Positions 3,471-51,394 of a stretch of 64,000 nt of DNA are shown here, piece by piece (the first letter of the stretch is position 1; each line of letters starts with the position of its first letter). The notes under the pieces are model-generated. The model worked only from the letters and a program-made list of their open reading frames with translations, had not been told where the DNA came from and made no database searches. A program made the position numbers and the translations under genes. The stretch spans positions 2,527 to 66,526 of IMG/VR virus record IMGVR_UViG_3300026557_000003; one strand, 5' to 3'. Origin of the DNA: a virus.

Positions 3471-3475
3471 TGAGT

Positions 3476-23670: not shown

Positions 23671-23793
23671 AGTGCGAATCTCCTTATTAGATTCCTGCCT
23701 TGGCTAGGACTGTTGAGGTATTTCCGTATCTCGGCAGTCCGTTTCTATTATAGACATTATCGTATTACCGTCAATCATTTAAGTGAGGTGTAA
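23146..23793 (+). CDS. Antisense bridging ORF spanning the HNH-2 cassette (candidate)
   Basis: AAGGAG RBS; ATG 2 nt after the upstream stop; its TAA abuts the TTG of the next gene. Confidence 0.4.
23671..23774 (-). promoter_or_regulatory. HNH-2 promoter and leader
   Basis: TTGACG-16-TATAAT; GGACTG/CAGTCC stem; CTAGCCA; GAATCT-aataagg-AGATTC. Confidence 0.7.
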
Positions 23794-25836
23794 TTGGGCG
23801 CACCGTGGAGCATTCCAATCAATTTCGAAGGCGGCTTTATCGGGCAGGAGATAACACCTGACGCCGTCAGTTCGAATCATCTGATCTCGCCTAGTCAGAA
23901 CCTTCTCTATAGCGTCCTCGGTCAACTGGAAAGCTTTCAGGGCTGCATCGCTGGTCTTACGAATGTCGGTGGTCCCCAGATTCAGACCGTCGGCGATACC
24001 TGGGTAACTCTCAATGGTGGAACGGCTGCATACTATACCGGTAAGTCAATCTGGTTCAACGGCGGCTCTGGTCCGGTAAAAACTCCCAATCCATCAAACC
24101 CGGCGGCAATCGTCACCCTTGGGACGAATAGCAGTATCCTGCAAGTTGCGGTCTTAAAGAACGGTGTCTATCAAACGGCATTACAGGCCGGATTAAGTGC
24201 TCCTGATGCGCCGGTTCTTGCTGGCCTCGCAACTCCTGGCGTCGGGTTCACCGGAAAGAATACCGGTACATTTGCGGCCGAGATAAGCAAGATCAGAATC
24301 ACTACTGGCGCTGAGAGTAATCCAAGCCCACCATCGAATGTGGTCGCTGTCACCGCGCAATCGATCAGTATCCAAATTGACGGCCCACCGGTTGACGGAA
24401 CGACCGGTTACAACGTCTATGTGACTGCCAATGGATTTGCCGAGAGTGGTCCTTTTTTGATTCTGCTGCAAATTCAGGAGGTCGATCTGACTGATAATGG
24501 AACAGGATCGATCACGATTGCGACAAAAAACTACACGGCATTAACCGGTCACGTTTACACCGCAAATGATGTTGGCAAACAGATTATTATCGGTGGGACG
24601 TTCACAACCGTAATCGATACCGTTACCGATGCGACCCATATTATTGTTCACGACAATGCACCTGGAACGGTCGTAGGCGCGGCGACGGTCATCAATGCTT
24701 TTCTGAATGGTGTCCCACGTGCTATCGAGATTGAATGGTCGGATGGTGAATTGATCCTGAGCCAGACTCCACCGATAGACCACGATCCGCCGCCGTCTGG
24801 CACTTCCTGCGCGGCCATCGGTAACGTGATGAATGTCGGTGGTTGCTACTCTGGTGTCGGTTGGGCCTGCTCGGATGCCGGGCAACCTGAAGCCTTTAAC
24901 CCCGACAACGTTTCGTTTCTATCAGAGCCTTTACAGTTTCCGTTAGGACGCCCACAAGACGGATTTATATATCTCGTCTGTGCGAATTCGATAAGTGCTG
25001 CTGTCTATACTGGTGCTGTCAATGGTCCGCCTGTGATGGTGAGGCAGATTTGGGACCGGGTAGGTTGTGCCGGGTTTGCATCGGCCGCAATATTTGCGAA
25101 GACCCTTTATCTGTTTACGAATGGCAAGAAGATCGCGCGAATCGATCCAAATGGAAATCTTGATTACGAATTCTCAAAACCGATCAATGCCGAGATCGCA
25201 AGTTGGGATGCATCGAAAGTTGTCGTCGGCTATAGCGATGAGCGACAGGCAATGTGTTTTATTCATAATCAGGAAATACTCTGTTTCCATATGAACCTAC
25301 CAAACGGTCGCGGCGGGATGGGCAGATGGTCAACACCATTAAATCTTGCGGCTGTCACCGGTTCGGGGAACCCGACTGGTAATATCACAGGTGCGTACAC
25401 GAACGCCGGAAAACTCTATTTGCTGGCTTTTGAATCCGCCAATTACAATATTTATAAGTTCGATGAATCGGGGGCAGGTGTCAGTACCTGGTTCTTTACA
25501 ACCGGTTGGCAAACAGCCTCAGGCGGTCTTGCGCCCGCTGAAGGTTTTCGCGGAACTAGAATCAGTCAGGACCTAAAGACGACAAAGAAGATTCTCTTGG
25601 ATTACTCGAGCTCGACTGATATTGCGCTGGCTGGTGGTATCTATAATTTCAATCTCGGGACGGGCGCGTTTGTGCGCCCGATTTCAACGACCCTGCCGCA
25701 CGCCAAGAGAATATCAAAATGGATGCGGGCAAACATTAAAGCCGGTCGGATATTCGCGGTCAATTTTGGAGGTACTGGCGCGGGTCAAAAGTTTTATGCA
25801 CTCGAAGTGGAAGGGGTAAGCAGTCGGATTCACTGA
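23794..25836 (+). CDS. Tail nozzle/DNA-stabilisation-like protein (P22 gp10-like beta-propeller)
   Basis: 680 aa beta-rich with internal Ig/fibre-like insert; synteny. Confidence 0.6.
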   Translation: MGAPWSIPINFEGGFIGQEITPDAVSSNHLISPSQNLLYSVLGQLESFQGCIAGLTNVGGPQIQTVGDTWVTLNGGTAAYYTGKSIWFNGGSGPVKTPNPSNPAAIVTLGTNSSILQVAVLKNGVYQTALQAGLSAPDAPVLAGLATPGVGFTGKNTGTFAAEISKIRITTGAESNPSPPSNVVAVTAQSISIQIDGPPVDGTTGYNVYVTANGFAESGPFLILLQIQEVDLTDNGTGSITIATKNYTALTGHVYTANDVGKQIIIGGTFTTVIDTVTDATHIIVHDNAPGTVVGAATVINAFLNGVPRAIEIEWSDGELILSQTPPIDHDPPPSGTSCAAIGNVMNVGGCYSGVGWACSDAGQPEAFNPDNVSFLSEPLQFPLGRPQDGFIYLVCANSISAAVYTGAVNGPPVMVRQIWDRVGCAGFASAAIFAKTLYLFTNGKKIARIDPNGNLDYEFSKPINAEIASWDASKVVVGYSDERQAMCFIHNQEILCFHMNLPNGRGGMGRWSTPLNLAAVTGSGNPTGNITGAYTNAGKLYLLAFESANYNIYKFDESGAGVSTWFFTTGWQTASGGLAPAEGFRGTRISQDLKTTKKILLDYSSSTDIALAGGIYNFNLGTGAFVRPISTTLPHAKRISKWMRANIKAGRIFAVNFGGTGAGQKFYALEVEGVSSRIH

Positions 25837-27347
25837 TGTCCAGTTTTGCAATACCATTAGGTGATAACTTCGCACAGACGCTACAGGAAAGGGCGCTGCT
25901 CGACCACCTGACGACCGCACTTGCCTCGGGCAATATTCAGGCGTTTGCTCAGGCTGTAGCTGCGGCGCTGACCTCTGGTGTAATCGTCAACCTGCTACGT
26001 AATAGCGATCTGAATACCTCGGACGCCGGTCGTCGTGGATTTACTTATTCAATCGGTGGTGGTGCGGTAAACGATGCTGCGAACGTCTGCGCATTTTGGT
26101 ATGCGCCTGGAAGCGCGGCGGCCGGTCCTTTTGTTGACAGCGTGACGGCAACAGAGAGTCCTGATGCCATCGCGGCCGTCAAGTACGTTTCTGACGGCGC
26201 AATCAGTACTGGAAGCCCTCACGCGCTTTCGATGGTGACCGCAACTTTTCTCGCCTCGGATGTCGGTAGGGCTGTCTGGATTGATGGCGCATTGGGGGGC
26301 GCGCCACTTATAACAACCATTTCAGCCTTTACCGATAGCACGCATGTAACTGTTACAGCGGCGGCGACCTCGACTGTTTCAGGAAAACTTGTGCGCATCT
26401 ACAACGCAGGGGCCAGCACCGTCTGGAATTTACCAAAAGGCTACGTCGAATGGGGTGGCGCTTTTACACTAATGAGTCCGCTGGAAAAGAACTTCGTCAG
26501 GCCCGGCGTGGCAAACAGTATTTTTATCATTGGTAGCGTCAGGCTCAATCCGGACACAGGCGCGTTACCGCTCACCGACGGCTACCGAGTTCGAGTTTCC
26601 TGCTGGGATAACACCGCAGGACAGGTGAAGATAATCGAAGGCGCGCCAATTCCGATTTCAGCGGCTCTTATTCGTGGTGCTGGCGCGGTCACACGAAAGT
26701 ATATTGTTAAATACTTTACGGCCGCCGGGGATTTCTGGTTTTCGGATGCGGTGTCACCTGTGGCTGTTACGTCGACTCCTGACCCTACGGCGGTCGATCC
26801 GGGACAAGTGGAAGTTACATTTCCGACCTATCCAGGGGTACGGACATATGAGGTTTATCGGTCTGATTCAGTTGCCGGTTTCAGTAACTTCTACCGGATC
26901 GCCACTGAGTCGACCGGGATAAGCAGCGCTCAGGATGTTGGTGGCAGATTTGAAGGACCGTATACTATCGCGGCAAAGAACTGGCGAGCGCAGGCGTTTG
27001 CGGCCGGGGTCATCGGCTCTGGCTGGTCACCGATAAGCTTCCATATCTTAACACCGGCGACATACAACCTGGGCATAACGGCAGCAAATTCACAATGGCT
27101 ACGATTCGATATTGTGGATGCGAGCGGTGCTGTTGTTTCGATACCACCGTGGACGCTTAATTTCGACTTCGCCGGGTTTAGTTATGCGTCAGGAAAATGG
27201 CAGATGTCGGCCTCGGATCAACAGGCGGCCGGGGACTTCGAATCGAAAAGTCCCTCGCCTTCCGGGGGTATTCCGTCTGGCGGCGGTGGCGATCCGGGCG
27301 GTGGTGGATCGATCGGGCGTGGCGGCAATCAAGACCTTGGGTTCTAA
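25836..27347 (+). CDS. Virion tail protein
   Basis: TGATG coupling; beta-rich; contains a segment resembling the insert in the previous gene. Confidence 0.6.
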   Translation: MSSFAIPLGDNFAQTLQERALLDHLTTALASGNIQAFAQAVAAALTSGVIVNLLRNSDLNTSDAGRRGFTYSIGGGAVNDAANVCAFWYAPGSAAAGPFVDSVTATESPDAIAAVKYVSDGAISTGSPHALSMVTATFLASDVGRAVWIDGALGGAPLITTISAFTDSTHVTVTAAATSTVSGKLVRIYNAGASTVWNLPKGYVEWGGAFTLMSPLEKNFVRPGVANSIFIIGSVRLNPDTGALPLTDGYRVRVSCWDNTAGQVKIIEGAPIPISAALIRGAGAVTRKYIVKYFTAAGDFWFSDAVSPVAVTSTPDPTAVDPGQVEVTFPTYPGVRTYEVYRSDSVAGFSNFYRIATESTGISSAQDVGGRFEGPYTIAAKNWRAQAFAAGVIGSGWSPISFHILTPATYNLGITAANSQWLRFDIVDASGAVVSIPPWTLNFDFAGFSYASGKWQMSASDQQAAGDFESKSPSPSGGIPSGGGGDPGGGGSIGRGGNQDLGF

Positions 27348-27351
27348 AGGA

Positions 27352-27861
27352 TTAAATATGCGTCCAGTTTTCTCCGCGAAGAATATGTGCAATCTCACTT
27401 CTACTCAAATTGAATTTGATCGCAAGCTGGCGTCTCGACAGCAGGCCTCCAAGGCTACGTATTTCGCGCACCGCCTCTTCTGTTGTCTTTGCCATTCCAT
27501 GATTAGAACCTCTACGAAGTCTATTTCTAACTCTCGCGTCTTCTGCGTTCTCAGCCGCCGTTCCTTCGCGAAGATGATCTGGATTAACGCAATTTTTAAT
27601 ATCACAGCCATGGAGCACGTACAATTCAGGCCATTTATTGTAAGCAATGCGATAAGAAGCTACGTGCGCTCCTACCTGGACTTTTCGAAATTGAATCTTG
27701 CCGGGTTGAATCCCGGCCTTCATTTTTGGACGGCGATTGCCAGTTTTCCATTTCCAGCAAGTGCCCCACGGGCCGTATCCGGTGGACTTATCAACCTTTG
27801 TCCAGAAATAGTTAATATCCTTGTCGGTGAGTTGAAGGCGGTTTATATTATCAGTAGCCAT
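27352..27861 (-). CDS. HNH homing endonuclease (HNH-3)
   Basis: FWTKVDK...CWKW...VLHGCDIKNCVNPDHLREGTAAENAED. Confidence 0.92.
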   Translation of the reverse strand: MATDNINRLQLTDKDINYFWTKVDKSTGYGPWGTCWKWKTGNRRPKMKAGIQPGKIQFRKVQVGAHVASYRIAYNKWPELYVLHGCDIKNCVNPDHLREGTAAENAEDARVRNRLRRGSNHGMAKTTEEAVREIRSLGGLLSRRQLAIKFNLSRSEIAHILRGENWTHI

Positions 27862-27939
27862 TTCTTGAAATCTACCTTTCAATTTTGGTTAGAGGCTTCG
27901 GGTTGCAGAAACAACTCGGGGCCTCATCGTGCATTATAG
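27358..27939 (+). CDS. Antisense bridging ORF spanning the HNH-3 cassette (candidate)
   Basis: AAGGA RBS; ATG 11 nt after the upstream stop; TAG 18 nt before the next start. Confidence 0.4.
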   Translation: MRPVFSAKNMCNLTSTQIEFDRKLASRQQASKATYFAHRLFCCLCHSMIRTSTKSISNSRVFCVLSRRSFAKMIWINAIFNITAMEHVQFRPFIVSNAIRSYVRSYLDFSKLNLAGLNPGLHFWTAIASFPFPASAPRAVSGGLINLCPEIVNILVGELKAVYIISSHFLKSTFQFWLEASGCRNNSGPHRAL

Positions 27940-27941
27940 CA
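27865..27941 (-). promoter_or_regulatory. HNH-3 promoter and leader
   Basis: TGcTATAAT; GAGGC/GCCTC stem with TGTTTCTGCA loop; CTAACCA; TTGAAA-ggtaga-TTTCAA. Confidence 0.7.
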
Positions 27942-27956
27942 CGGAAGGAGTGTATT

Positions 27957-28550
27957 TTGGGCTCGGGCAATGATCAAGCAAAACAATTAGCGAACAAAGC
28001 CGATACTTCATCGGTAACGACGCTTGACAACTCGACCTTTAATCCGCTTGCCAAAGCTGGAATTGACAGGGCTGGCACTGATCTTCAGAATATTCAGGCC
28101 GGTAAGTTCGGGAGCCTGCCACTTGTTCAGGCGGTCAATCAGGCGGCGAACAGGTTGAAATCGTGGAATCCGGCCCCAATGGGTGATGCTGCGCTGGCCG
28201 CCGGTGCGAGCGGGCAAGGTGGGTATGCGACCGCAGAGGACTCCTATCGTCGGAGATTACAGGACCGGGCCGTTAGCGACCTGATGCCACAGGCGGTGGA
28301 GGCTGAGCGGAATTATTCGAGTTCCATATTATACCCTGGGGCGCAGGGTGAATCGGCTTATGATTTAGCCAAGGCTGCTGGCTACGCGGGCGCGGGAGGC
28401 CAAGCTGCAAATTTGTACAATCTGGAATCGAATAACGGGTTCTGGAATCATCTGACGAACTCACTTGGCCAGAGTCTCGGCCAAAGTCTTGGCGGCGTCA
28501 GTGGTAGCTACAATAGCGGAAACGGCCAGTTCACGGGTGGCTTTGGTTAA
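27957..28550 (+). CDS. Ejection/pilot-like protein (P22 gp7-like)
   Basis: GGAAGGAG RBS with TTG; Gly/Ala/Asn-rich, GQSLGQSLGG C-terminus. Confidence 0.6.
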   Translation: MGSGNDQAKQLANKADTSSVTTLDNSTFNPLAKAGIDRAGTDLQNIQAGKFGSLPLVQAVNQAANRLKSWNPAPMGDAALAAGASGQGGYATAEDSYRRRLQDRAVSDLMPQAVEAERNYSSSILYPGAQGESAYDLAKAAGYAGAGGQAANLYNLESNNGFWNHLTNSLGQSLGQSLGGVSGSYNSGNGQFTGGFG

Positions 28551-29254
28551 AGAATATGCTTCCACGTTTCACGTCTAACAACATTTCGGATGGTGGCGGG
28601 GCTTACACCGTATCGCTTCCCCTGTGCGTAAAGAGAGCATATCGCTGCGTTCTGGCGTATCTCTCTAACATCCTTTTCAGTCAGACGCGCAAAGCAATGC
28701 AATTCGCCCCTCGCTGGCCTTTGCTGGCTTGCTGCATTGGTGGCGTCTTCGACATGTTTCCAGGTCTGACATTTAATGATCCTCTTTGCAGTACAGGCTG
28801 CAACGCTGAACCTACGACCTATTTCTTCGTAACTCAATCGCGGAAAAAGCGAACGAAGTTCTGTTATTTCGACCTCTGTAAGTGTTGTGTTGTAATTATC
28901 TTCTCCCCGTATCCCGCGGCCCTTCGCTGCCATATCAGCACTATTCTCAGCGTTCGTGCCCTTGAAAAGGTGTGCGGGATTAACGCAGGAACGGTTATCG
29001 CAGTGATGGCAAACGAGCAATTTTGGCCATTCGTGAAAATGAACCATAAAGGAGAATCGGTGGGCTCCTACTATTCTCCTTGGAATGCCTCGTTGTATGA
29101 TCGCCAGACTTCCGTATCCTTGATTGCCAATAGTGCCAGTCCACGACCAGCAATCTCCGTCAGGACCAAAACCCGGCGTTTTGTCAACTCTTTCCCAGAA
29201 CATTTTAAGATGCTTGTCGGTAAACACCGGTGGGTTTATATTAGTCGAAGCCAT
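28547..29254 (-). CDS. HNH homing endonuclease (HNH-4)
   Basis: FWERVDK...CWSWTG...[27 protein letters not shown]; duplicated C-terminal HTH. Confidence 0.92.
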   Translation of the reverse strand: MASTNINPPVFTDKHLKMFWERVDKTPGFGPDGDCWSWTGTIGNQGYGSLAIIQRGIPRRIVGAHRFSFMVHFHEWPKLLVCHHCDNRSCVNPAHLFKGTNAENSADMAAKGRGIRGEDNYNTTLTEVEITELRSLFPRLSYEEIGRRFSVAACTAKRIIKCQTWKHVEDATNAASQQRPARGELHCFARLTEKDVREIRQNAAICSLYAQGKRYGVSPATIRNVVRRETWKHIL

Positions 29255-29332
29255 ATTCTGAATCACCTTTCAGTTTGTTGGTTAGAGCCGCTGCGGACAT
29301 TTAGCGTGTCCGCGCGGCTTGCTGTATTTTAA
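28556..29332 (+). CDS. Antisense bridging ORF spanning the HNH-4 cassette (candidate)
   Basis: ATG 6 nt after the upstream stop; TAA 15 nt before the next start; weak RBS. Confidence 0.4.
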   Translation: MLPRFTSNNISDGGGAYTVSLPLCVKRAYRCVLAYLSNILFSQTRKAMQFAPRWPLLACCIGGVFDMFPGLTFNDPLCSTGCNAEPTTYFFVTQSRKKRTKFCYFDLCKCCVVIIFSPYPAALRCHISTILSVRALEKVCGINAGTVIAVMANEQFWPFVKMNHKGESVGSYYSPWNASLYDRQTSVSLIANSASPRPAISVRTKTRRFVNSFPEHFKMLVGKHRWVYISRSHILNHLSVCWLEPLRTFSVSARLAVF

Positions 29333-29334
29333 CA
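29258..29334 (-). promoter_or_regulatory. HNH-4 promoter and leader
   Basis: TGtTAAAAT; AGCCGC-GCGGACA stem with CGCTAAA loop; CTAACCA; CTGAA-aggtga-TTCAG. Confidence 0.7.
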
Positions 29335-29346
29335 CAGATTTGGAGT

Positions 29347-30033
29347 TTGATTTTGCTTATTACCATTCAGGGTGACACGATTCCAAATTGGCAGCCTCTA
29401 AATCCAACTGTGGAAATGCGGATATTTGCCAATGATGCGTTTGTAACCGACGAAGGTGTACTCATACAGCCTGGGCCATTGTTCTACCAAGCCGTGGAAT
29501 GCACTCCGAATCTAACGCTCAAAACATTAGCCTATCCGACCTTTACAATTGAGGCAACTACTAACGGCACACCAAACAACCAGACCTACAGTTTCCTATT
29601 TTATTCAGGCCCCGGAGTCAACGGCCGTCCAATCAACGGCGGTCAGTTCGTGGGATTCCAAAACCTGCCCGTTCCTTTCGCTCCGACGACTACGACACTC
29701 GCAGCGCTCGAAATTAGTGCCGGTCAGTTTTTCCCGCCTGGGTGGTCGATTGATGAAGCCCTAATCAGTGCGCTACAGGCCCAGCAATCATCGGTTACGT
29801 TTCCTGCGAATAATCCGACACCATCCGTATTCAATCGCGAGAACTTCATAACCGCAAATACGCAGACAACGAATTACACCAATTTTTTGAATCCGTATAA
29901 TGGCCAACGGATTGAGATTCTCGTTAATGATATTTTCACGTCCATTTTCGGGACGCAGTTTAATCAAGGGACGGTCGTCGGACTCCGTTTCGATCTTGGT
30001 CAATGGTACTTCACTGGATTTCAAACCAACTAA
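29347..30033 (+). CDS. Virion protein
   Basis: TTG start with GGAG RBS; beta-rich. Confidence 0.6.
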   Translation: MILLITIQGDTIPNWQPLNPTVEMRIFANDAFVTDEGVLIQPGPLFYQAVECTPNLTLKTLAYPTFTIEATTNGTPNNQTYSFLFYSGPGVNGRPINGGQFVGFQNLPVPFAPTTTTLAALEISAGQFFPPGWSIDEALISALQAQQSSVTFPANNPTPSVFNRENFITANTQTTNYTNFLNPYNGQRIEILVNDIFTSIFGTQFNQGTVVGLRFDLGQWYFTGFQTN

Positions 30034-30035
30034 TT

Positions 30036-31280
30036 ATGAAAAAACTATTACTTTTGCTCACGTTCTTCTTTGCGTTTACAGTCTTGGCCGAGGCCCAATT
30101 CTCAACCCCTATCCAGTCTGGCCCGACGCCGATAGGTATACACTGCACTCCGAATCCCCAGTTAACTCCTTTCTTCGTCCGTACCTCGGACTGGCAAACC
30201 TTTGTCTGTACCGCGCTCGACACCTGGACGCCGACAAGTGGCGGCGGGGGAGGTGGTGGAATATCGACGATTAACGGTAGCGGCATAGCGGCTCAGATCA
30301 TTCAAGGTACGGCGGTAGGCGGTCCGAATGTATCGTCAGTCGCAGGGGTAACCACGATTAGTAATCCATCGGCTGGAGCGGCGACGGCAGGTATCGTAAC
30401 GGCTGGAACGCAGATCATCGATGGCGCAAAGACGTTAACTGGCGCTACGACCGTTACAAATGCAACGGTTAATAGTTTGAATGTTGGCCCAACTGGGGCG
30501 ACCAATCCAGCGTTTTCGGTAGACTCCAGTCCAACGGTAGGATTTGGCCTGGGTGGCATTCAAGTCATAGGTGGCACAAACGGCTCAAACCCGACCATTC
30601 AGGTAGTTTCCCCACTGTCGCCGACCGGACTTAATATAAACACCCTTGGAGCATCTGGAATTACTTTTCAGGTTAACGGGGTAAACACTTTTACCGTTGG
30701 CCCTGCCGCAATTTCAACCCACGGCTCGATGACGATGTTCGCTCCGAATGCTTCGATTCTAATGCAGGGCTCGACCTCTGGAAGCTCAACGATCATCCCG
30801 CAGGCAATTGCCGGAAATTATACGTTTCAGCTTCCGAATGCTAATCCGGCCGTCGGTCAGAATGTATACGTGGCTGGATTTTCCGCTGGCATAGTAACGC
30901 TTGGCTATCAGAACTCCGGTGGGGTAACGGCATCACCTTATGATCTTGGCGCGGAATGGGACGCCATACCGACGGCCTCACAGGAGATGCTTCATTTTGT
31001 AGCCAACCGGTCATTTACGTTGGCTGTCACCGGCTCAACCTGCCACTCGAACTTTGCGGCAACCGCTCAGGCGGATTTTGTCGTTCAGTATTGTCCGTCA
31101 GGTGTGTCATGTATAAGCAAGGGTACTTTACGGTTTGCGGCTACCGGTGTCTTTTGCTCCGTAGTTAGTCCGGTATCGGTTACCGTGTCATCGGGTGATG
31201 TTGTAAAGATCATCGCACCGGCCAGCCCAGACGGGACTCTATCTAATGTAACTTTTACCTTGAAAGGAACAGTGCCTTAA
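30036..31280 (+). CDS. Tail fibre/spike-like protein with signal-peptide-like N-terminus
   Basis: MKKLLLLLTFFFAFTVLAEA|Q; Gly/Thr-rich shaft; C-terminal jelly-roll-like domain with paired Cys. Confidence 0.7.
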   Translation: MKKLLLLLTFFFAFTVLAEAQFSTPIQSGPTPIGIHCTPNPQLTPFFVRTSDWQTFVCTALDTWTPTSGGGGGGGISTINGSGIAAQIIQGTAVGGPNVSSVAGVTTISNPSAGAATAGIVTAGTQIIDGAKTLTGATTVTNATVNSLNVGPTGATNPAFSVDSSPTVGFGLGGIQVIGGTNGSNPTIQVVSPLSPTGLNINTLGASGITFQVNGVNTFTVGPAAISTHGSMTMFAPNASILMQGSTSGSSTIIPQAIAGNYTFQLPNANPAVGQNVYVAGFSAGIVTLGYQNSGGVTASPYDLGAEWDAIPTASQEMLHFVANRSFTLAVTGSTCHSNFAATAQADFVVQYCPSGVSCISKGTLRFAATGVFCSVVSPVSVTVSSGDVVKIIAPASPDGTLSNVTFTLKGTVP

Positions 31281-33385: not shown

Positions 33386-33419
33386 AATCTGGCGTCCGAA
33401 CTCAACCAAGGGAGTATCT

Positions 33420-33791
33420 ATGAAACGATTGATTGGGATGATAATCCTCTGTGTGATGGCGGGAATACCACTGTGTTTCTTACAGAATCATCTTGTGAAG
33501 GCGCAAGCACAGACAAAGGACATTGCGACCGATAAAAAACCGGCCGCCGTGACGCCGTTCACAATAGAGGAAAGCTATGTGTTGACCGACTCTGAGAAAA
33601 CGAAACTCGCACAGGACAGGATCATCGATGAACTGAACGACAAATTGGCAGTCGCAGTGTTCACGAGGAAGGCCGCAATTAATCAGTTCAACGAGATCGC
33701 TGCGAAATATCCTGGCGAGGTATTTACCAAATCGAAGAACGGTTTATACGAAGGCCACCGCCCGCCGACAGAAGCCGAAAAAGGTAAGTAA
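33420..33791 (+). CDS. Secreted/membrane-anchored coiled-coil protein
   Basis: AAGGGAG RBS; MKRLIGMIILCVMAG...VKA|Q. Confidence 0.65.
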   Translation: MKRLIGMIILCVMAGIPLCFLQNHLVKAQAQTKDIATDKKPAAVTPFTIEESYVLTDSEKTKLAQDRIIDELNDKLAVAVFTRKAAINQFNEIAAKYPGEVFTKSKNGLYEGHRPPTEAEKGK

Positions 33792-41130: not shown

Positions 41131-41189
41131 TTCATTGAACCGCTTTTGATTTCCCGCCGAATAATTTCACGATTATTTTAATTTGGTGC

Positions 41190-41220
41190 TTGACATACAA
41201 GTCCTATATAGCGTACAAGT
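41190..41220 (+). promoter_or_regulatory. Early-region promoter/operator candidate
   Basis: TTGACA at 41190; TACAAGT direct repeats at 41196 and 41214; -10 not convincing. Confidence 0.4.
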
Positions 41221-41226
41221 ACGCCT

Positions 41227-41430
41227 ATGGAAAAAGACATAAGAAAAACCATAAAGGTATCTGAGGGCGCGCACGTCGCTATAAAACTCGCGGCTGCGTA
41301 CTCACAGGAAACGATTAGCGATATGCTATTTCGGCTGTCAAAGGCTGAGATCGTGGTGCGGTCACGGGAGCGTGTGGCGAACGGCAAGCCAGCAAAGAAA
41401 GCGAAGGTGGCAAATGGACGCAAGGGTTAG
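41227..41430 (+). CDS. Ribbon-helix-helix (Arc-like) regulator
   Basis: KTIKVS strand followed by two helices. Confidence 0.65.
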   Translation: MEKDIRKTIKVSEGAHVAIKLAAAYSQETISDMLFRLSKAEIVVRSRERVANGKPAKKAKVANGRKG

Positions 41431-41836
41431 GCGAGCAGTCGCTGCGGCTGAGCCGGGCAAGATCAACGTCAAGCTGTGGGCGCTGGTGATCGCAACGATA
41501 GAGGCGAATGGAAAGAAGTACGATCAGGATAAGATTGGTGACGAAAAGCCGCTATGTAAATCGCCTGCGTGCCAGGCCGGGTGGTGTCAGTATCTCGTGG
41601 ATGGTTTTATTGCGGGGGATACGTTGGGTCGCGCACAGGATTTATTGCGACTTGAAGACCGTATTCCGTTTGGTATATTTTTTGGCGGACAGTACGATGC
41701 GGTGAAAAACTGTCTTGTTGACGTGACCGCCAAAACAATCCGGGCTGAAGTAAATCGCTATTTGGGAAACAGGGGATATAGCAGGCTAGGCAAGGTCAGA
41801 CCAGTCCAGTTAGCCGCAAGAAGAGGAAATAGATGA
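41414..41836 (+). CDS. Hypothetical protein
   Basis: Overlapping operon packing. Confidence 0.55.
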   Translation: MDARVRRAVAAAEPGKINVKLWALVIATIEANGKKYDQDKIGDEKPLCKSPACQAGWCQYLVDGFIAGDTLGRAQDLLRLEDRIPFGIFFGGQYDAVKNCLVDVTAKTIRAEVNRYLGNRGYSRLGKVRPVQLAARRGNR

Positions 41837-41928
41837 GCAAGCGCAAAGGCATCTCACCCGAGTGCATCAGGAAAATCATCGCGGCGTGAGTAAAGCGGGC
41901 GGCGAAGATTAGGAGCGGGAAATGTTAA
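41833..41928 (+). pseudogene. Small ORF interrupted by an in-frame TGA
   Basis: MSKRKGISPECIRKIIAA*VKRAAKIRSGKC; AGAGGA RBS; ATGA coupling. Confidence 0.3.
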
Positions 41929-42209
41929 AGCATTATGTCGAACTGGATTATCCGGGAACATTCTTTCCCGAAACCAAAGTGAAGGAAATCGCATCGCGCG
42001 AAGATTTCCAGCCGCCATTCGGTAAGGGGCTGTACGCCTTCGCATTCTTTGATCGTGAAGAGGTCGAGTTGAACGGCGAAAAGCTAACCAGCGCAGCAAA
42101 GAATCGCCTGCTGGATAATGCCCGTATCAATGGATGGGACATACTGGTTCTCTGCCCTGCTGGCAATTGGCAGCCCCTTCAAGAGGGCGAATCGTTAATT
42201 GAGACATAG
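41922..42209 (+). CDS. Hypothetical protein
   Basis: AGGAG RBS. Confidence 0.6.
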   Translation: MLKHYVELDYPGTFFPETKVKEIASREDFQPPFGKGLYAFAFFDREEVELNGEKLTSAAKNRLLDNARINGWDILVLCPAGNWQPLQEGESLIET

Positions 42210-42296
42210 AGATTCCCGGCACCCAACGCGCTTCTCGTCTTGGGAGAGCGGGATTCGCCGGACCAGGGTGTCGGGAAAGATTGGAGAGGTAGCACG

Positions 42297-42557
42297 ATGG
42301 GCGAATATACCGGTATCTACGAGTTGACCTCTTTGAACTTGACCGGCCTTGGCGGCCCGATGGGCACCGAACGCGTTACGGCAAACTGGCGGCGATTCTA
42401 TGGCAGCTTTGAAGACGCAAAGTCAGCGGCCCAAAAAGATTATGTGCGCGGCGAAATTCACTGGCACTATAAGGCCGGCGGCTGTTCCTCGGGTGATTTA
42501 GGATATGTTGCATACGCAATTAGCGAGATTTGCACGGAGAAATCAGATGAAAAATAG
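42297..42557 (+). CDS. Hypothetical protein
   Basis: GGAGAGG RBS before ATG 42297. Confidence 0.55.
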   Translation: MGEYTGIYELTSLNLTGLGGPMGTERVTANWRRFYGSFEDAKSAAQKDYVRGEIHWHYKAGGCSSGDLGYVAYAISEICTEKSDEK

Positions 42558-42846
42558 CAACGGCGAACTCCACATCAAGAAATCATCCTCAGCGTTCGAC
42601 ACCTTGCAGTTCGCGAAGGCCGGCGATCACGAGATAGTTTTCGTTGAACCAGAGGATGGTGATCAGGTTGTAATCGCGACCGCCGACTTGGGCGACTCCT
42701 GGCAACGGTTGATCGACGACTGCGAGCGGGACCTGCAACGGATCGATAGCACCTTGGGCTTGCGGGATCAGGTTGTCGTGCTGGATAAGCGAGTCGATAA
42801 CGCGATTGAGCGCGCGGATAAGCTGGCAAAGGAAATTACTTACTGA
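42547..42846 (+). CDS. Hypothetical coiled-coil protein
   Basis: GGAG RBS; overlap with the upstream gene. Confidence 0.55.
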   Translation: MKNSNGELHIKKSSSAFDTLQFAKAGDHEIVFVEPEDGDQVVIATADLGDSWQRLIDDCERDLQRIDSTLGLRDQVVVLDKRVDNAIERADKLAKEITY

Positions 42847-42939
42847 ATTTAGCGGCGGTCCAGCACCGGAGAAAGTCGCAAGGCGTCGAGTACCCCGTCG
42901 AACGTTGGAACAAGCCGCCGCTGATTATTGGAGGATAAA

Positions 42940-43119
42940 ATGGATTATGTGCTTGCTTCGGAATTCAGCCCAAACGAATTGGCTAAAAGTGTAGAGCGTT
43001 ATTTCGAGGCCGGATTTAAGCTATACGGCAATCCGTTTGCCGTGGTCCAGACGCACCCGCATCCTCTTCAAGGGGACATGATGGTGTTTTGTCAGGCTTT
43101 AACAAGAGAAAGAAAATAA
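42940..43119 (+). CDS. Small DUF1737-like hypothetical protein
   Basis: ELAKSVERYFEAGFKLYGNPF...FCQAL pattern; GGAGG RBS. Confidence 0.55.
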   Translation: MDYVLASEFSPNELAKSVERYFEAGFKLYGNPFAVVQTHPHPLQGDMMVFCQALTRERK

Positions 43120-43128
43120 GGAGCAGCA

Positions 43129-44496
43129 ATGAAAGAACAAAAGGAACTGCGGGTAACACGGCTGTCGATTAAAAATATCCTGGGGATCCAGAGTCTTGAA
43201 ATCAGGCCGGACAGAAGCATTACCGTGATAAACGGCGAGAATGCCAGCGGTAAGACCTCGCTGATTCAGGCAATTCAGTCGATTTTCAAAGGTGGCAACG
43301 ATGGCTCGCTCTTAAAAGTCGGTGCTGATAAAGGCGAGATCGTTCTTGAGCTAAACGATGGCGTAAAGATCGAACGAACGGTTACGGCCAATAAGTCTGC
43401 GACGATGATTACGCACCCGGAATTTGGGCAAATATCGAAGCCGGCCGCGTTTCTCGAATTGCTGATCGACAAACTTGGAACGAACCCTATCGACTTCCTG
43501 ACGGCCCCAGCGAAGATGCGCGTCCAGTTGTTGCTGGAAGCAATGCCGATTAAATTGGATAACGACCTGATTGAGCCGATCATCGGGCACAAGGTTGACC
43601 CGCTGGACACAAACGCCCTAGAACTGATCGACCGCGAAAGCAAGCGGTTCTATGACGACCGGACGGGTGTCAACCGGGTAGCCAAAGAGAAGCGGGCGAC
43701 GATCCTTCAGATGAAGCAGACGCTGCCAGAAGATGCAGAGGATACCGATTGGGCGCGTATCGTCGTGGCCACCGAAGGCAGTCTTGCCCTTGTAAGCCAG
43801 AGCGTTCAGATGAAAATCGACGCCATAATTACCGATATGGACGTCGAGAAAGATACAGCGCGTGGCACCCAAGCTGTTCTTTGTGGCGAGATTGATTCGA
43901 GACTTGAGGCCGAAATCGCCAGGCTACGGCTCGACGCAGAGGCCAAAAAGGATGAAATCAGAGCCGACACAGCAACGAGTCTGGATAGGATTCATCGGTC
44001 AACGCAGGAAAGCGTTGATAAACTGCGAATGGACGCCGCGCCAGAAGTCCAGAAACTGACCGGAAAGCTGGCTGTCGCCCGTGAGAACCTTACCAATCAG
44101 TCGAAGATCAACCAAACCAAAGAGTACATCAAGACTCTCGGTGAAGAAGCGACCAAGGCCGAAGCGCAGTCCGACAAAGACACCAAGACAATCGAGGCGC
44201 TGGCCAACCTGAAAACCAAGCTTTTGAACGACCTGCCGATTAAAGGCGTCGAGGTCAAAGACGGTGAACTGTTCGTCGATTCAATCCCGTTCGATAGAGT
44301 CAATGAAGCGCGGAAGGTAGAGATTGCGATTCAGATTGCGGGACTCAGAAGCGGCAAGTTACCGCTGATTATTGTAGACGGTCTGGAACGTCTCGACAGT
44401 AAGACATTCGAGGCATTCAAGAAGCACGCGGCGAAGTCCAAGGTCCAGATGATCGTAACGCGGGTGTCAGATTCGGCGCTCGCAGTGGAGGCGTAA
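43129..44496 (+). CDS. SMC/RecN-like AAA ATPase
   Basis: Walker A GENASGKTS, long coiled coil, Walker B IIVDGLERLD. Confidence 0.88.
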   Translation: MKEQKELRVTRLSIKNILGIQSLEIRPDRSITVINGENASGKTSLIQAIQSIFKGGNDGSLLKVGADKGEIVLELNDGVKIERTVTANKSATMITHPEFGQISKPAAFLELLIDKLGTNPIDFLTAPAKMRVQLLLEAMPIKLDNDLIEPIIGHKVDPLDTNALELIDRESKRFYDDRTGVNRVAKEKRATILQMKQTLPEDAEDTDWARIVVATEGSLALVSQSVQMKIDAIITDMDVEKDTARGTQAVLCGEIDSRLEAEIARLRLDAEAKKDEIRADTATSLDRIHRSTQESVDKLRMDAAPEVQKLTGKLAVARENLTNQSKINQTKEYIKTLGEEATKAEAQSDKDTKTIEALANLKTKLLNDLPIKGVEVKDGELFVDSIPFDRVNEARKVEIAIQIAGLRSGKLPLIIVDGLERLDSKTFEAFKKHAAKSKVQMIVTRVSDSALAVEA

Positions 44497-44699
44497 TGCA
44501 GGTACAAATAACAAGCTACAAATGCGATTTACAAAATTGTCCGAATGTAACCGATGGCAAGGGACTGGACGGTTATGTTCAGTTAACTCAGTTTGCGTTT
44601 TACTACCATAATCGCGGCAATGAAGTTCGGCAGGGCGGCGAAAAACACTTTTGCTGCAAAGACCACTTTATGCAATGGATAGACCGGCAGGTCGGATAA
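44496..44699 (+). CDS. Small zinc-binding protein
   Basis: CDLQNC...FCCKDH. Confidence 0.55.
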   Translation: MQVQITSYKCDLQNCPNVTDGKGLDGYVQLTQFAFYYHNRGNEVRQGGEKHFCCKDHFMQWIDRQVG

Positions 44700-44710
44700 A
44701 AGGAGCAATC

Positions 44711-45025
44711 GTGGTTCACACAATCCAAAGACCTAGCGGCGGGTGCGAGTTTGATGACCAATCAAAGCCTACGGCAGTCGCTGAGTATTATGATGATATA
44801 AGCCTTGGTAACGATTCAGGCTTTATTATCGACTGTTCGGGCGATCACAAGGGACCGCCGATTCGTGTTATCGTAGTTAATCCCCGGCTGGAATGGGACG
44901 GTGATCGCCACAATATTGATTACGACAAGATCACATACGAGGATGGCGAAAAGATAGATGACATCGTTGACGACACCTATCACGACGCCATCATGCAGGA
45001 AGTCAAAAACTGTATAACTACATAA
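44711..45025 (+). CDS. Acidic hypothetical protein
   Basis: AAGGAG RBS with GTG 44711. Confidence 0.55.
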   Translation: MVHTIQRPSGGCEFDDQSKPTAVAEYYDDISLGNDSGFIIDCSGDHKGPPIRVIVVNPRLEWDGDRHNIDYDKITYEDGEKIDDIVDDTYHDAIMQEVKNCITT

Positions 45026-45036
45026 GGAGCAATCAA

Positions 45037-45903
45037 ATGTCGAATCCCATTCCCGACGAACAGGGAATCATTGAAAAGCCGGGGTTAAAACCTCAGTTAC
45101 ATATCTCAGCATTGAACATGTTGAATTTTTGTGGAGAGCAGTTCAGGCGTCGGTATATCCTGAAAGAGAAGCGACCGCCCGGTGTTGCGATGATCGTGGG
45201 CACGGCCGCCGATAGATCAGTCACCCGCAATCTTCAGAGCAAGCTGGATACGAATCAGTTATTGCCACTCGCTCAAGTGAAGCAAATCGCGGCTGATACT
45301 CTCAATGCTGAGTGGCAGAACTCTGTCGCGCTTGACGCTGACGAACTAGTCCAGGGAATCGAAAGAGTCAAAGGCGAAGCAATTGATAAAGCTGTCAGGC
45401 TTTCATCTCTTCACGCAACGGAATTAGCCCCAAAGCTACAGCCAACGCACGTACAACGACAATGGACACTGGATATAGTCGGCTACGATATGAGTCTTGC
45501 CGGCACGATCGATGTTCAGGAAGGCTCGGATTCAGTCAGGGACACAAAGACCAAAGGCAAAAGCCCCAGTGAAGATATCGTGCACCACGATCATCAGTTG
45601 ACCGCCTATGCGATGGCGGCAAAAGTTATTGACGGTAAAGTGCCGGAACAGGTGACGCTTGATTGCATGGTCGATAACAAGACGCCAATCTTAAAGGTCT
45701 ACAAATCAACCCGTAACGAGAAAGACTTCCAGGCGTTTTTGGCCCGCGTCGAGAATGCCATCGTTGCACTTCAGAAGGGTGTATTCGTTCCGGCAAAGCA
45801 AACAGACTTTCTTTGCAGTCCTAAATATTGCGGGTTTTTTAGTTCATGTAAATTCGTTATGCAGCCGAAATCCGTTTCAGTCCCAAGCAATTTTAACGTC
45901 TGA
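45037..45903 (+). CDS. PD-(D/E)XK (RecB/Cas4-like) exonuclease
   Basis: LAGTIDV...VRDTKT, QLTAY, Cys at both ends (FC...CSPKYCGFFSSC). Confidence 0.85.
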   Translation: MSNPIPDEQGIIEKPGLKPQLHISALNMLNFCGEQFRRRYILKEKRPPGVAMIVGTAADRSVTRNLQSKLDTNQLLPLAQVKQIAADTLNAEWQNSVALDADELVQGIERVKGEAIDKAVRLSSLHATELAPKLQPTHVQRQWTLDIVGYDMSLAGTIDVQEGSDSVRDTKTKGKSPSEDIVHHDHQLTAYAMAAKVIDGKVPEQVTLDCMVDNKTPILKVYKSTRNEKDFQAFLARVENAIVALQKGVFVPAKQTDFLCSPKYCGFFSSCKFVMQPKSVSVPSNFNV

Positions 45904-45919
45904 TTTTAAGGAGCAACCA

Positions 45920-47059
45920 GTGAGTAAACAAATAGCAACCGAAGATACCGCCCTCGTAACTCGCAATGAATTTTCCAGTGAGCTTGCGCCAACCAGTTCG
46001 GCTGCAGAAAAGCAATTCGAGATTCAATCGGCAATCATTATTGCGAATCGTTTTCCGCGCAATGAAGATGTTGCGCTAATAAAGTTGATGAAATCCTGCG
46101 ATAGACTGTCTTTCGCGGAAGACGCAGAGTATGAATTCCCGCGTGCTGGAACCCAGATAATCGGCCCGAGTGTCCACTTAGCAAGAGAAAGCGCGCGGTG
46201 CTGGGGTAATATTCGATACGGTGTTGACATCATCCGTGACGATGAAAACAGCCGTCAGATTCGCGGATGGGCGTGGGATCTGGAAACAAATATCAAGGTC
46301 ACGTCCGAAGATGATTTTGCAAAGTCAATCTACCGTAAAAATGGTGGCTGGCAGAAACCGGATGAACGCGACCTGCGGGAGTTGACCAACCGAAAGGGTG
46401 CGATACTCGAACGCAACTGCATTCTCAAGATCATCCCAAAAGACTTTATCGAGGATGCCCGAACGCGATGCAATGAGACGATTAAGAAAGGAATCAAAAA
46501 CGATCCTGAGACCGCACGTAAACGACTGATCGTATCTTTCAGCGCGATTGGTGTAACACCGGAAATGCTGGAAAACTATCTTCAACATCCGATAGCGAAT
46601 TCAAGCCCGGCTGAAATCGAGAAGTTGCGTAAGGTCTATTCGTCGATTAAGGATGGCAACTCGACGTGGCAAGAATATACGAGTCCAGCGAAGAAAGAAC
46701 CTGAAAAAGGTTCAATCAACATCACGGACCTGAAACCCGGCACGGAAGAGAATCGCGGCCACGGCAACGACAATCTCGACCAGGCGGCAAAGGAAAAGAT
46801 CATCAATAACATTCCTGATACTGGCATTGCTGAGATTGCCCGAGGGAAATCAGAGCCAGCGGCCGCCTGCTCCGACGAACTATACGCCTCAATGATCGAT
46901 ACCATCGCGGCGGCAAAGGAAGTTCTGAGCGAGAAGAAAATCACGGATACGATTAGAAACTACACTGGTCCTAATCGAAAGAAAGAGGACCTCAAGAATG
47001 ATGAGGTTCAGTTGCTCATCAAGTCGCTAAATGACGCGGTGGCGAAGGCGCAGAAGTAA
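45920..47059 (+). CDS. Putative recombination/single-strand annealing protein
   Basis: FPRNED...YEFPRAG..IIGPSVHLARESARCWGN; position after the exonuclease; function inferred from synteny. Confidence 0.55.
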   Translation: MSKQIATEDTALVTRNEFSSELAPTSSAAEKQFEIQSAIIIANRFPRNEDVALIKLMKSCDRLSFAEDAEYEFPRAGTQIIGPSVHLARESARCWGNIRYGVDIIRDDENSRQIRGWAWDLETNIKVTSEDDFAKSIYRKNGGWQKPDERDLRELTNRKGAILERNCILKIIPKDFIEDARTRCNETIKKGIKNDPETARKRLIVSFSAIGVTPEMLENYLQHPIANSSPAEIEKLRKVYSSIKDGNSTWQEYTSPAKKEPEKGSINITDLKPGTEENRGHGNDNLDQAAKEKIINNIPDTGIAEIARGKSEPAAACSDELYASMIDTIAAAKEVLSEKKITDTIRNYTGPNRKKEDLKNDEVQLLIKSLNDAVAKAQK

Positions 47060-47072
47060 CGAGATTCGTAAG

Positions 47073-47296
47073 GGCGCAGCAGTAGTCCCTGTCGCTGTGG
47101 TACGTCGCCTTTGGGCGTAGAGCAAGGCCAAAGTAGGAGTCGGGCAACCGATATACCGAGAAGGTCTCAGGGATGAACACGAGTGTGAAGCGCTGCAAGG
47201 CAAACGCCGCTGATGCCCACCATAAATGAAATGGCGTGACTTTGCCGGTGGGAGAGAAACCGGCCTAATGTTGAGGGTCAACGGAAAGGCGCAGCA
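47073..47296 (+). ncRNA. Candidate structured RNA
   Basis: 237-nt non-coding gap with nested stems, GCAA tetraloop and alternative pairing; GGCGCAGCA at both ends. Confidence 0.4.
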
Positions 47297-47977
47297 ATGA
47301 ATTTTAATCCACACGAACAAGACTCTGAAACTCAAATCGCAATGGCAGAAGCTAGAAAGACAATGCTAAAGACGAACAAAATTACTGTTTTCGATATTGA
47401 GATTATCAAAGCAATTCCTGACCGCAATCAGGAGAATGACCCGACTATTAAATATTGCGGCGGCTGGCAGGATCACGCCGGAATGGGTATCTCAGTTATC
47501 GGAGCATATTCATACGCAGATGACCGTTATCGGGTTTTCCTCAAAGACAACTTTGGGCTATTCGAGGACCTGTTGCACGAATCAGATATTGTTGTGAGCT
47601 TCAACGGTCTAGCATTCGATAACCGCGTATTGGAAGCCTGTGGCATCAACCCGCCAGACGCGACAACCTACGATCTGTTGGTCGAAACCTGGGCTGCCGC
47701 TGGACTCGCGCCGAAGTTCAATTATAAGACACACGGCGGCTTTGGTCTTGACGCCGTATGTTCTGCGAATTTCGATCTGAACAAGACTGGACACGGCGCA
47801 CTTGCCCCCGTCCAATGGCAACAAGGCAAATACGGACACGTCATTGATTACTGTCTCGAAGACGTAAGATTAACCAAAAAACTGTTCGACCTGGCCACGG
47901 CGGGGCCAATCAAGAACCCGAAATCCGCAATTGGTGGAAGTTATTTGATGTTGCGGGATCCATTTATCGTGAAATGA
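47297..47977 (+). CDS. DEDD/RNase H-like 3'-5' exonuclease
   Basis: VFDIE, SFNGLAFD, YDL, LDAV, YCLEDVRLT. Confidence 0.85.
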   Translation: MNFNPHEQDSETQIAMAEARKTMLKTNKITVFDIEIIKAIPDRNQENDPTIKYCGGWQDHAGMGISVIGAYSYADDRYRVFLKDNFGLFEDLLHESDIVVSFNGLAFDNRVLEACGINPPDATTYDLLVETWAAAGLAPKFNYKTHGGFGLDAVCSANFDLNKTGHGALAPVQWQQGKYGHVIDYCLEDVRLTKKLFDLATAGPIKNPKSAIGGSYLMLRDPFIVK

Positions 47978-47996
47978 TCGATTATATGCTTACTTA

Positions 47997-48080
47997 TGCT
48001 AGAATAAGGTCGAGTCGAAAAGACGTTACCAGCGCCCTTTCGACTCTCACCTATACCACTCGTAACATAAGGAGCACGAG
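47997..48080 (+). promoter_or_regulatory. HNH-5 promoter and leader
   Basis: TGcTAGAAT; GAGTCGAAA/TTTCGACTC stem with CGTTACCAGCG loop; CTCACC; CTCGT-aacataaggagc-ACGAG. Confidence 0.7.
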
Positions 48081-48084
48081 CAAT

Positions 48085-51307: not shown

Positions 51308-51393
51308 TGTTAACATGGATGCGAATCAGGGAGATGTTTTGAGCGTCTCCCTGGCTCTAATCAAATCGACGAACCTGTAAGGAGATTCGCATC
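51308..51393 (+). promoter_or_regulatory. HNH-6 promoter and leader
   Basis: TGtTAACAT; CAGGGAGA/TCTCCCTG stem with TGTTTTGAGCG loop; CTCTAATCA; GATGCGAATC/GATTCGCATC pairing over the RBS region. Confidence 0.7.
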
Positions 51394-51394
51394 A

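Follow-up and report, generated by a model that had tools for sequence, protein, structure and literature searches.

A 64,000-nucleotide (nt) stretch of viral DNA (positions 2,527 to 66,526 of IMG/VR record IMGVR_UViG_3300026557_000003; hereafter, the window), which is most of a 69-kb phage record, carries six free-standing HNH endonuclease genes of at least three subfamilies, each preceded by a hairpin-bearing leader, and the question it raises is on which strand these hairpins do their work. To our knowledge, the control of free-standing homing endonucleases is known for only a few T4-family cases, always via the structure of the messenger RNA (mRNA) itself. A preliminary description of this DNA proposed that the hairpins pair better on the strand antisense to the endonuclease genes, and that the functional form is a cis-antisense RNA, possibly the late mRNA itself at leaders 2-4, or a single-stranded DNA hairpin. 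Here, we compare the six leaders with each other and with homologues found elsewhere, in an analysis that is computational throughout, and suggest that the leaders probably specify a cis-antisense RNA with its own promoter and two stem-loops, which would restrain the nuclease genes.

The endonuclease genes and their common leader

The plus strand from ~4 to 41 kb holds structural and late genes, with replication genes after them, and three of the endonuclease genes (A to C) are inserted backwards among these late genes. The six genes are listed below, with their leaders numbered in genome order as in the preliminary description.

2802..3470, minus strand: HNH endonuclease gene 1, phrog_3377 type (leader 1)
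23137..23670, minus strand: HNH_3 endonuclease gene A (leader 2)
27352..27861, minus strand: HNH_3 endonuclease gene B (leader 3)
28547..29254, minus strand: HNH_3 endonuclease gene C (leader 4)
48085..48657, plus strand: HNH_3 endonuclease gene D (leader 5)
51395..52036, plus strand: NUMOD4 + HNH_3 endonuclease gene E (leader 6)

In gene orientation, all six leaders share one architecture, i.e., an extended -10 element (TGnTAnnAT), a spacer of 5-7 nt that puts the hairpin at the expected +1 of the mRNA, a hairpin of 13-16 base pairs (bp), a CTAACCA-like box (TGGTTAG on the antisense strand), ~20 nt, a Shine-Dalgarno site, and the ATG, with a sense -35 element additionally present in three of the six. 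The hairpins of leaders 1 and 6 (3508-3540 and 51323-51357) lie outside the range of the preliminary description (23701-48046). A covariance model built from five leaders (R1) finds the remaining one, leader 1, at an E value of 1e-5 and nothing else in the genome. The hairpin stem is clearly under selection, as 12 of its 14 pairs have changed on both sides among five leaders and none of 500 shuffles reached as high a value. The bare word TGGTTAG is not enriched in the window (6 occurrences vs. 4.1 expected) and is meaningful only in register with the hairpins.

Strand bias of the hairpins

Counted in the common 14-bp register of leaders 2-6, the wobbles of leaders 2, 3, and 5 agree with the earlier tally of three, three, and two on the antisense strand: leaders 2 and 3 have three antisense G·U pairs each and none on the mRNA, and leader 5 has two antisense G·U pairs together with one on the mRNA that had been overlooked. 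Leader 4 has no wobbles and a 1-nt bulge only, and leader 6 has two to three G·U pairs on the mRNA and one on the antisense strand, so that the earlier statement that a single wobble (in leader 6) favours the mRNA was an undercount. RNAfold energies (sense/antisense, in kcal/mol) are -9.9/-21.1 for leader 2, -15.2/-22.2 for leader 3, -22.7/-24.7 for leader 4, -13.6/-19.9 for leader 5, and -19.7/-13.4 for leader 6, i.e., a gain on the antisense strand of 11.2, 7.0, 2.0, and 6.3 kcal/mol for leaders 2-5 and a gain on the sense strand of 6.3 kcal/mol for leader 6. Within this phage alone, the balance of nine antisense to four mRNA wobbles is not significant (binomial p ~0.27) and is uninformative on strand, because these are paralogous leaders of a single phage.

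Orthologous leaders were not to be found nearby. Megablast of 13 kb gave no close relative among GenBank phages, the nearest phages by terminase (38-47% identity) have neither an HNH_3 gene nor the leader, and the HNH protein relatives, from 80 viral loci and from a search of 5.8 billion proteins, are only 30-45% identical, with nothing resembling the leader in a scan for hairpins upstream of these 80 loci. Homologues were therefore sought by motif. Since the spacing from the sense -10 to the box is constant at 38 nt, a pattern of these two elements only, which fixes just the last three bases of the stem, was scanned over IMG/VR and yielded five distinct true leaders amid mostly chance matches, three of which are recognised by R1 (E ~1e-6); a sixth true leader outside this phage is L188. 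Searches by blastn with two of the pattern-found leaders located the module in two cultured phages, namely Synechococcus phage Yong-M3-232, with two sites of which one precedes an annotated HNH gene, and Acinetobacter phage Acba_1. Three of these leaders have an identical 15-nt hairpin tip (L142:11446-11460), and a scan with this tip found at least 117 viral stretches vs. ~50 expected, mostly as tips of longer hairpins. The shared tip is an anticodon-loop-like UUGGUAG loop (CUACCAA on the complement) closed by GGUG/CACC. Mimicry of a tRNA D-arm or anticodon by the antisense strand was considered and rejected, as there is no cloverleaf and the likeness covers only 7-10 nt.

The genes behind the leader-type members encode several HNH families, a GIY-YIG homing endonuclease, T5orf172 proteins, tyrosine integrases, and, in P4-like prophages of E. 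coli, a small protein with the RefSeq name Icd-like host cell division inhibitor. The foreign phages that carry the module have very different hosts (Acinetobacter, Synechococcus, E. coli, gut, and soil bacteria). A 321-nt query that spans the hairpin and the start of the Icd-like gene has matches in 1292 of the 5426 complete E. coli genomes, and in 32 of these the match covers 80% or more of the query.

Some members have additional features. Two viral contigs (L256 and L285) have two hairpins in tandem with the CUACCAA/UUGGUAG loop in each. In the P4-like prophage of E. coli O145:H28 RM12581 (L326:3440-3660), three copies of a 13-nt direct repeat surround a TTGACG/TAGTAT promoter upstream of the Icd-like gene, and the family hairpin comes next. 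On the reverse strand of L136, an extra G+C-rich hairpin with a T-run, ~60-100 nt past the leader hairpin, holds the Shine-Dalgarno site directly before the start codon and is possibly an attenuator added to the module.

In the larger sample called for by the preliminary description, the strand bias is far beyond chance. Among 89 hairpins, which are distinct sequences though not phylogenetically independent, 82 fold more stably as antisense, 4 as sense, and 3 equally (sign test 6e-20), and their minimum-free-energy structures contain 250 antisense vs. 23 sense G·U pairs. The bias is 41 vs. 1 for the 43 hairpins that have a ribosome site and a long open reading frame (ORF) within 75 nt, and 8 vs. 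1 (p 0.04) in the set found without use of the conserved tip, which comprises the six leaders of this phage and the pattern matches and of which ten hairpins in all passed the folding filters. Because the shared tip itself favours the antisense strand, wobbles were recounted outside the five apical pairs, where 36 leaders have 44 antisense G·U pairs vs. 1 on the sense strand. Further, the A+C skew of the sense strand is 0.30 in the untranslated region (UTR) and 0.18 in the hairpin vs. 0.04 in the adjacent coding sequence, a local skew that argues against a gene-wide compositional or mutational cause. Given enough homologues, the direction of G·U vs. A·C can thus assign the working strand of a hairpin.

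Predicted antisense promoter, second helix, and competing explanations

A positional signal for a promoter is present on the antisense strand. Among 37 distinct genes, 15 have an antisense TANNNT hexamer 8-11 nt from the start-codon complement vs. 1.9 expected (p 2e-10), a second peak lies at 4 nt (9/37 genes), and sense-oriented hexamers in the same window of positions, taken as a control, are about five-fold fewer. In this phage, the antisense hexamer stands at 9 or 10 nt in all six leaders, with a TGn extension in two. An independent sigma-70 consensus scan reported plus-strand promoters with a -35, a 17-nt spacer, and TATATT at 27821-27849 and 29214-29242, which are the same sites as the antisense -10 elements of genes B and C. 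The antisense -10 lies in codons 4-7 of the nuclease gene, and the opposing -10 elements are 78-96 bp apart (median 82). The elements of each module are as follows.

Leader 1: hairpin 3508..3540 (plus strand), box 3501-3507, sense extended -10 at 3547-3555 (minus strand)
Leader 1, antisense: extended -10 (TGT + TAAAAT) at 3449-3457 (plus strand), predicted RNA ~3464-3548 (plus strand)
Leader 2, module 23653..23752: start-codon complement 23668-23670, box TGGCTAG 23701-23707, hairpin 23707-23740
Leader 2, sense promoter: -10 at 23747-23752, -35 at 23769-23774 (minus strand; 11/12)
Leader 2, antisense: -10 TATGTT at 23653-23658 (plus strand), predicted RNA ~23665-23750 (plus strand)
Leader 3, module 27821..27941: start-codon complement 27859-27861, box TGGTTAG 27886-27892, hairpin 27892-27925, complement of the sense extended -10 at 27933-27941
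Leader 3, antisense: -35 at 27821-27826, -10 TATATT at 27844-27849 (plus strand), predicted RNA ~27856-27938 (plus strand)
Leader 4, module 29214..29334: start-codon complement 29252-29254, box TGGTTAG 29279-29285, hairpin 29285-29319, complement of the sense extended -10 at 29326-29334
Leader 4, antisense: -35 at 29214-29219, -10 TATATT at 29237-29242 (plus strand), predicted RNA ~29249-29331 (plus strand)
Leader 5, module 47997..48106, antisense on the minus strand: sense extended -10 at 47997-48005 (plus strand), hairpin 48012-48046, diverged box 48044-48052, start codon 48085-48087
Leader 5, antisense: extended -10 (TGG + TATATT) at 48098-48106 (minus strand), predicted RNA ~48091-48003 (minus strand)
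Leader 6, module 51308..51418, antisense on the minus strand: sense extended -10 at 51308-51316 (plus strand), hairpin 51323-51357, box 51355-51363, start codon 51395-51397
Leader 6, antisense: -10 candidates at 51408-51413 and 51413-51418 (minus strand)

The box takes part in a second helix, in which TGGTTAG pairs with the sequence complementary to the first two codons (start codon and codon 2). All 5 bp of this helix can form on the antisense strand in 15 of 36 leaders (permutation p 0.0015), as against 1 of 36 on the sense strand (p 0.29), and box and start show matched changes (AACCA with ATGGCT, AATCA with ATGACT, AAACA with ATGTTC, and AGCCA with ATGACC). Its imperfect positions are G·U on the antisense strand and A·C on the mRNA (33 vs. 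6), and even in leader 6 the antisense helix has all five pairs. Closure of the first stem-loop would be the reason why both the box and the ATGGCT start are conserved. When the antisense RNAs are folded from a start 7 nt past the -10 to an end directly after the hairpin, those predicted for leaders 1-4 take the same two-stem-loop shape, and the fold z scores (antisense/sense) are -6.05/-3.66, -5.46/-2.00, -5.12/-3.52, -6.15/-4.54, -5.70/-2.90, and -4.88/-4.64 for leaders 1 to 6.

The sequence around the hairpin is also polar. The 10 nt before it on the sense strand hold a mean of 4.9 A, thus U after the hairpin on the antisense strand, and the 10 nt after it hold a mean of 1.8 T (tail polarity p 2e-7). 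A run of at least four A precedes the hairpin in 34 family members, 33 of which fold better on the antisense strand; antisense U-runs are plain in many foreign members, and the promoter scan classed the plus-strand form of the hairpin at 23707-23740 as terminator-like.

What the sequences themselves show is an asymmetry between the strands, covariation in both helices, a promoter signal tied to position, and a polar tail, and a cis-antisense RNA seems the simplest account of asymmetry, promoter, tail, and second helix together; we infer the production of such an RNA, its end point, and its repressive effect. Hence, the preliminary suggestion of a cis-antisense RNA as the functional form gains computational support from the antisense -10, the U-rich tail, and the covarying box-start helix.

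By analogy with RNA-OUT, CopA, Sok, and sar, the module might work as follows. Two promoters would stand face to face, ~82 bp apart, at each endonuclease gene. On the gene strand, an extended -10 sigma-70 promoter would start the mRNA at the first base of the hairpin. From the other side, an antisense RNA of ~80-90 nt would start at the start-codon complement, extend across the Shine-Dalgarno site and the box, and have its 3' end at the hairpin. In its first stem-loop, the 5' end of the RNA (typically AGCCA) would pair with the box UGGUU and present an anti-Shine-Dalgarno sequence at the tip; the second would be the 14-bp hairpin, stabilised by G·U pairs and followed by the U-rich tail, serving as a terminator and/or a 3' stabiliser. 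This tail would lie opposite the -10 and the A-rich spacer of the mRNA promoter. Because the same positions are A·C in the mRNA, the target hairpin would be looser than the regulator, and a loop-loop contact could proceed to full pairing across the 5' UTR, with ribosome binding blocked and/or the duplex exposed to RNase III. The colliding promoters could add transcriptional interference, and the outcome would be a potentially harmful nuclease held at a low level. The genes behind the module, i.e., endonucleases, tyrosine integrases, and Icd-like inhibitors, are ones for which tight repression makes sense, which suggests such a role.

A class resembling small RNAs lies opposite the tyrosine integrase leaders of L248, L250, L224, L254, L255, L273, L313, and L320 (mostly human-gut). 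The unit consists of TTGACA, a 17-nt spacer, an extended -10, a body of ~75 nt, and a G·U-rich hairpin with a U-run; its terminator has the same 15-nt tip as the endonuclease leaders, and the class is not in Rfam. One example starts UUGGUUAG and has UUGGUAG in the terminator loop. These units appear, from their layout, to be the clearest sign that the G·U-rich strand is transcribed in this hairpin family. Separately, L250:1630-1666 (minus strand) matches the Rfam abiF RNA at 46.4 bits, above the gathering score; this is an apparent terminator of the gene upstream of the integrase-leader small RNA, and we rejected it as the identity of the L250 family hairpin, since it is a separate terminator-like hairpin 60 nt away.

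Several points weigh against a cis-antisense RNA. The antisense hexamer is absent at the preferred spacings in 12 of 36 leaders, -10-like hexamers arise easily in AT-rich N-terminal codons, and the 37 genes are not fully independent because some leaders are paralogous. Only one of the six hairpins in this phage satisfies the scan's terminator rule, and the U-rich tail is not independent of the sense promoter, being shared with the sense -10. The hairpin asymmetry of leader 6 is reversed, and the shared 15-nt tip, borne by 33 leaders, alone contributes about -2.4 kcal/mol and one G·U to the antisense strand. Finally, the hairpin lies exactly at the predicted 5' end of the mRNA and may act on the mRNA too, and it is plausible that both roles coexist.

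That the hairpin acts on the endonuclease mRNA instead, as a 5'-terminal stabiliser that guards against decay from the 5' end or as part of a self-inhibiting 5' UTR whose box pairs with the start codon, with A·C mismatches tolerated or selected for an A/C-rich, weakly structured leader, would account for its position at the predicted +1, both in this phage (all six leaders) and in the leaders found by pattern, for the constant 38-nt spacing from -10 to box, and for the stronger mRNA strand of leader 6; in addition, the sense UTR forms a small hairpin of its own, in which the box contacts the start codon and the Shine-Dalgarno site. However, helices selected as RNA keep G·U rather than A·C, and the mRNA has 1 G·U vs. 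44. Its hairpin is the weaker one in 41 of 43 leaders, the sense box-start helix is no better than permuted pairings, the sense UTR has weaker z scores in leaders 1-5 (-2.0 to -4.5 vs. -5.1 to -6.2), and neither the antisense -10 signal nor the tail polarity would be predicted. For a stabiliser of the ompA type, we find the proximity to the 5' end (as judged from the -10 spacing) and do not find pairing kept on the mRNA strand. We consider this explanation unlikely. A template-strand DNA hairpin or cruciform with G·T pairs, serving as a recombination or replication signal or as a promoter modulator, seems to us more doubtful still. The asymmetry fits, as G·T is tolerated in DNA, the module travels with unrelated mobile genes in phages of very different hosts, and the PeSL cassettes of T4-type phages are reported to mediate recombination (PMC2839356). 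Such a hairpin, however, needs no promoter at a fixed distance, no one-sided U/T-rich tail, and no helix that reaches the start codon, and no strand-reading protein or mechanism is evident in the window.

The idea that, at leaders 2-4, the folded RNA is the late plus-strand mRNA, with the hairpin as a processing, stabilising, or attenuating signal, draws on their location amid late genes of the plus strand, where the hairpin precedes the next late start by 25-55 nt, and on the plus strand folding better in five of the six leaders of this phage. As a general explanation it fails: leader 5, whose gene runs in the direction of its neighbours, favours the minus strand, and the bias is as strong or stronger in foreign leaders, whose genes are mostly co-directional with their neighbours, so that the better-folding strand is not that of a major mRNA. 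Further, the antisense promoters at 27821-27849 and 29214-29242 would supply RNA starts of their own, and we regard this explanation as highly improbable. Scarcely credible to us is a mutational or compositional by-product in which neither strand was selected to fold. The sense leader is A+C rich and transitions automatically give G·T on one strand and A·C on the other, yet the stems covary strongly, the skew is confined to UTR and hairpin and absent from the adjacent coding sequence, and the bias follows the direction of the leader, whichever genome strand it lies on and also where the hosts of the phages are unrelated. If cytosines of the non-template strand were deaminated, T would become more frequent on the sense strand, contrary to the pattern here. 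Two other candidates were rejected. Antitermination of the boxA/nut type leaves the strand asymmetry unexplained, and the likeness to lambda and rrn boxA extends only over GCTCT; a leader peptide across the hairpin, ending at the TAA of the box, is present in no more than 14 of 36 leaders, and its frame and start vary among them.

Three long plus-strand ORFs (23086-23793, 27112-27939, and 28556-29332) cross the backward genes A to C in antisense, each with a stop codon shortly after the leader hairpin that falls within or close to the complement of the HNH -10, and the late genes after them have apparent TTG starts. Elsewhere in the window, 1558-1651 holds a ~21-nt repeat three times (two copies at 1571-1593 and 1629-1651) and a 16-bp hairpin (1558-1594), just downstream of a replication-initiator O-like gene (1652-2083, minus strand) and near a helix-turn-helix gene (920-1336, minus strand); by appearance, these repeats look like iterons or operators.

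If the cis-antisense RNA is real, a conserved and transferable antisense-RNA module would be a new general answer to how homing endonucleases are restrained, and would tie their regulation to that of integrases and Icd-like division inhibitors. More tentatively, and with considerable doubt, the module could be a portable antisense-RNA "governor" cassette that has spread over tailed phages and satellites whose hosts differ widely, as a common off-switch for homing endonucleases (at least four families), tyrosine integrases, and Icd-like proteins, in which case the conserved tip may act either as a fast-kissing loop common to all members or as the point where a conserved host factor takes hold. 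As the module occurs in E. coli genomes and in cultured phages, these ideas are open to test in strains that already exist, and RNA-seq data already at hand would probably serve as well.

Relation to described regulators

No Rfam family matches the leader module at any threshold used, and literature searches found no description of it. PeSL cassettes of T4-type phages, which combine a strong sigma-70 promoter with a stem-loop, flank accessory genes, and are thought to be portable, have stem-loops described as terminating or attenuating transcription that comes in from upstream on the strand of the gene itself (PMC2839356, PMC4122927). The module resembles them as a short, repeated cassette of promoter and stem-loop. 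Unlike in PeSLs, the hairpin here is downstream of the -10, within the transcript, and apparently shaped for pairing on the opposite strand, its 3' flank on the sense strand lacks a T-run (1.8 T in 10 nt), and the phage is not T4-like.

Among regulators of homing endonucleases, the T4-family genes I-TevI and mobE have hairpins that sequester the ribosome-binding site as well as promoters of their own, i.e., control lies within the mRNA (PMC2988022, PMC2790892). The genes studied here are similar in being free-standing endonuclease genes that would be under tight control at several levels, by promoters of their own and by structures in the leader, and differ in the antisense partner proposed, none being described there. 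CfrI of cyanophage S-PM2 is an experimentally detected antisense RNA of ~225 nt that runs opposite a homing-endonuclease gene and links this gene to psbA, the one reported detection of an RNA of this kind (PMC2984593). Both are phage antisense RNAs opposite a homing-endonuclease gene, ours a predicted one, and CfrI differs in size and layout.

The preliminary description also likened the TGGTTAG-stem-loop motif to the b' and a' elements of c4-type antisense RNAs, of which a loose functional analogy stands, with two recognition elements in each, and a kinship by Rfam match, fold, or strand does not. Rfam C4 (RF01695) and IsrK gave no match in the whole window (E<=5), in 27780-29420 (E<=10), or in the E. 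coli Icd-like leader (E<=10). C4 RNA of P1/P7 and CI RNA of P4 are three-stem, RNase P-processed RNAs encoded on the same strand upstream of their targets (PMC5320573, PMC3632133). Like them, the RNA proposed here would be a phage regulator with two short elements matching sites just upstream of the target's ribosome-binding site, and, as the targets of C4 include icd, a homologous hairpin module stands directly upstream of Icd-like genes in P4-like E. coli prophages. Unlike C4, the predicted RNA lies opposite the target strand and has two simple stem-loops vs. a tRNA-like three-stem fold, and its box and loop elements are merely part of full cis complementarity.

Cis-encoded antisense RNAs are well established in mobile elements and plasmids, such as IS10 RNA-OUT/RNA-IN, R1 CopA/CopT, hok/sok, and P22 sar. 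With these, the predicted RNA shares a 60-90-nt length, a promoter at the 5' end of a gene harmful in excess, promoters that face each other, full complementarity to the 5' UTR and start codon, and a stable regulator stem-loop with a YUNR-like U-turn (UUGG in the shared apex here) against a looser target. It differs from them in having no sequence or Rfam kinship, in a terminal hairpin whose tail overlaps the -10 of the target promoter, in being so far a prediction, and in belonging to a module that is portable over phages and several gene families. A predicted opposite-strand promoter at the 5' end of the target and an antisense structure under selection, two of the features by which cis-antisense control is recognised, are both found here, and we class the module as a probable case of cis-antisense control that is outside every described RNA family.

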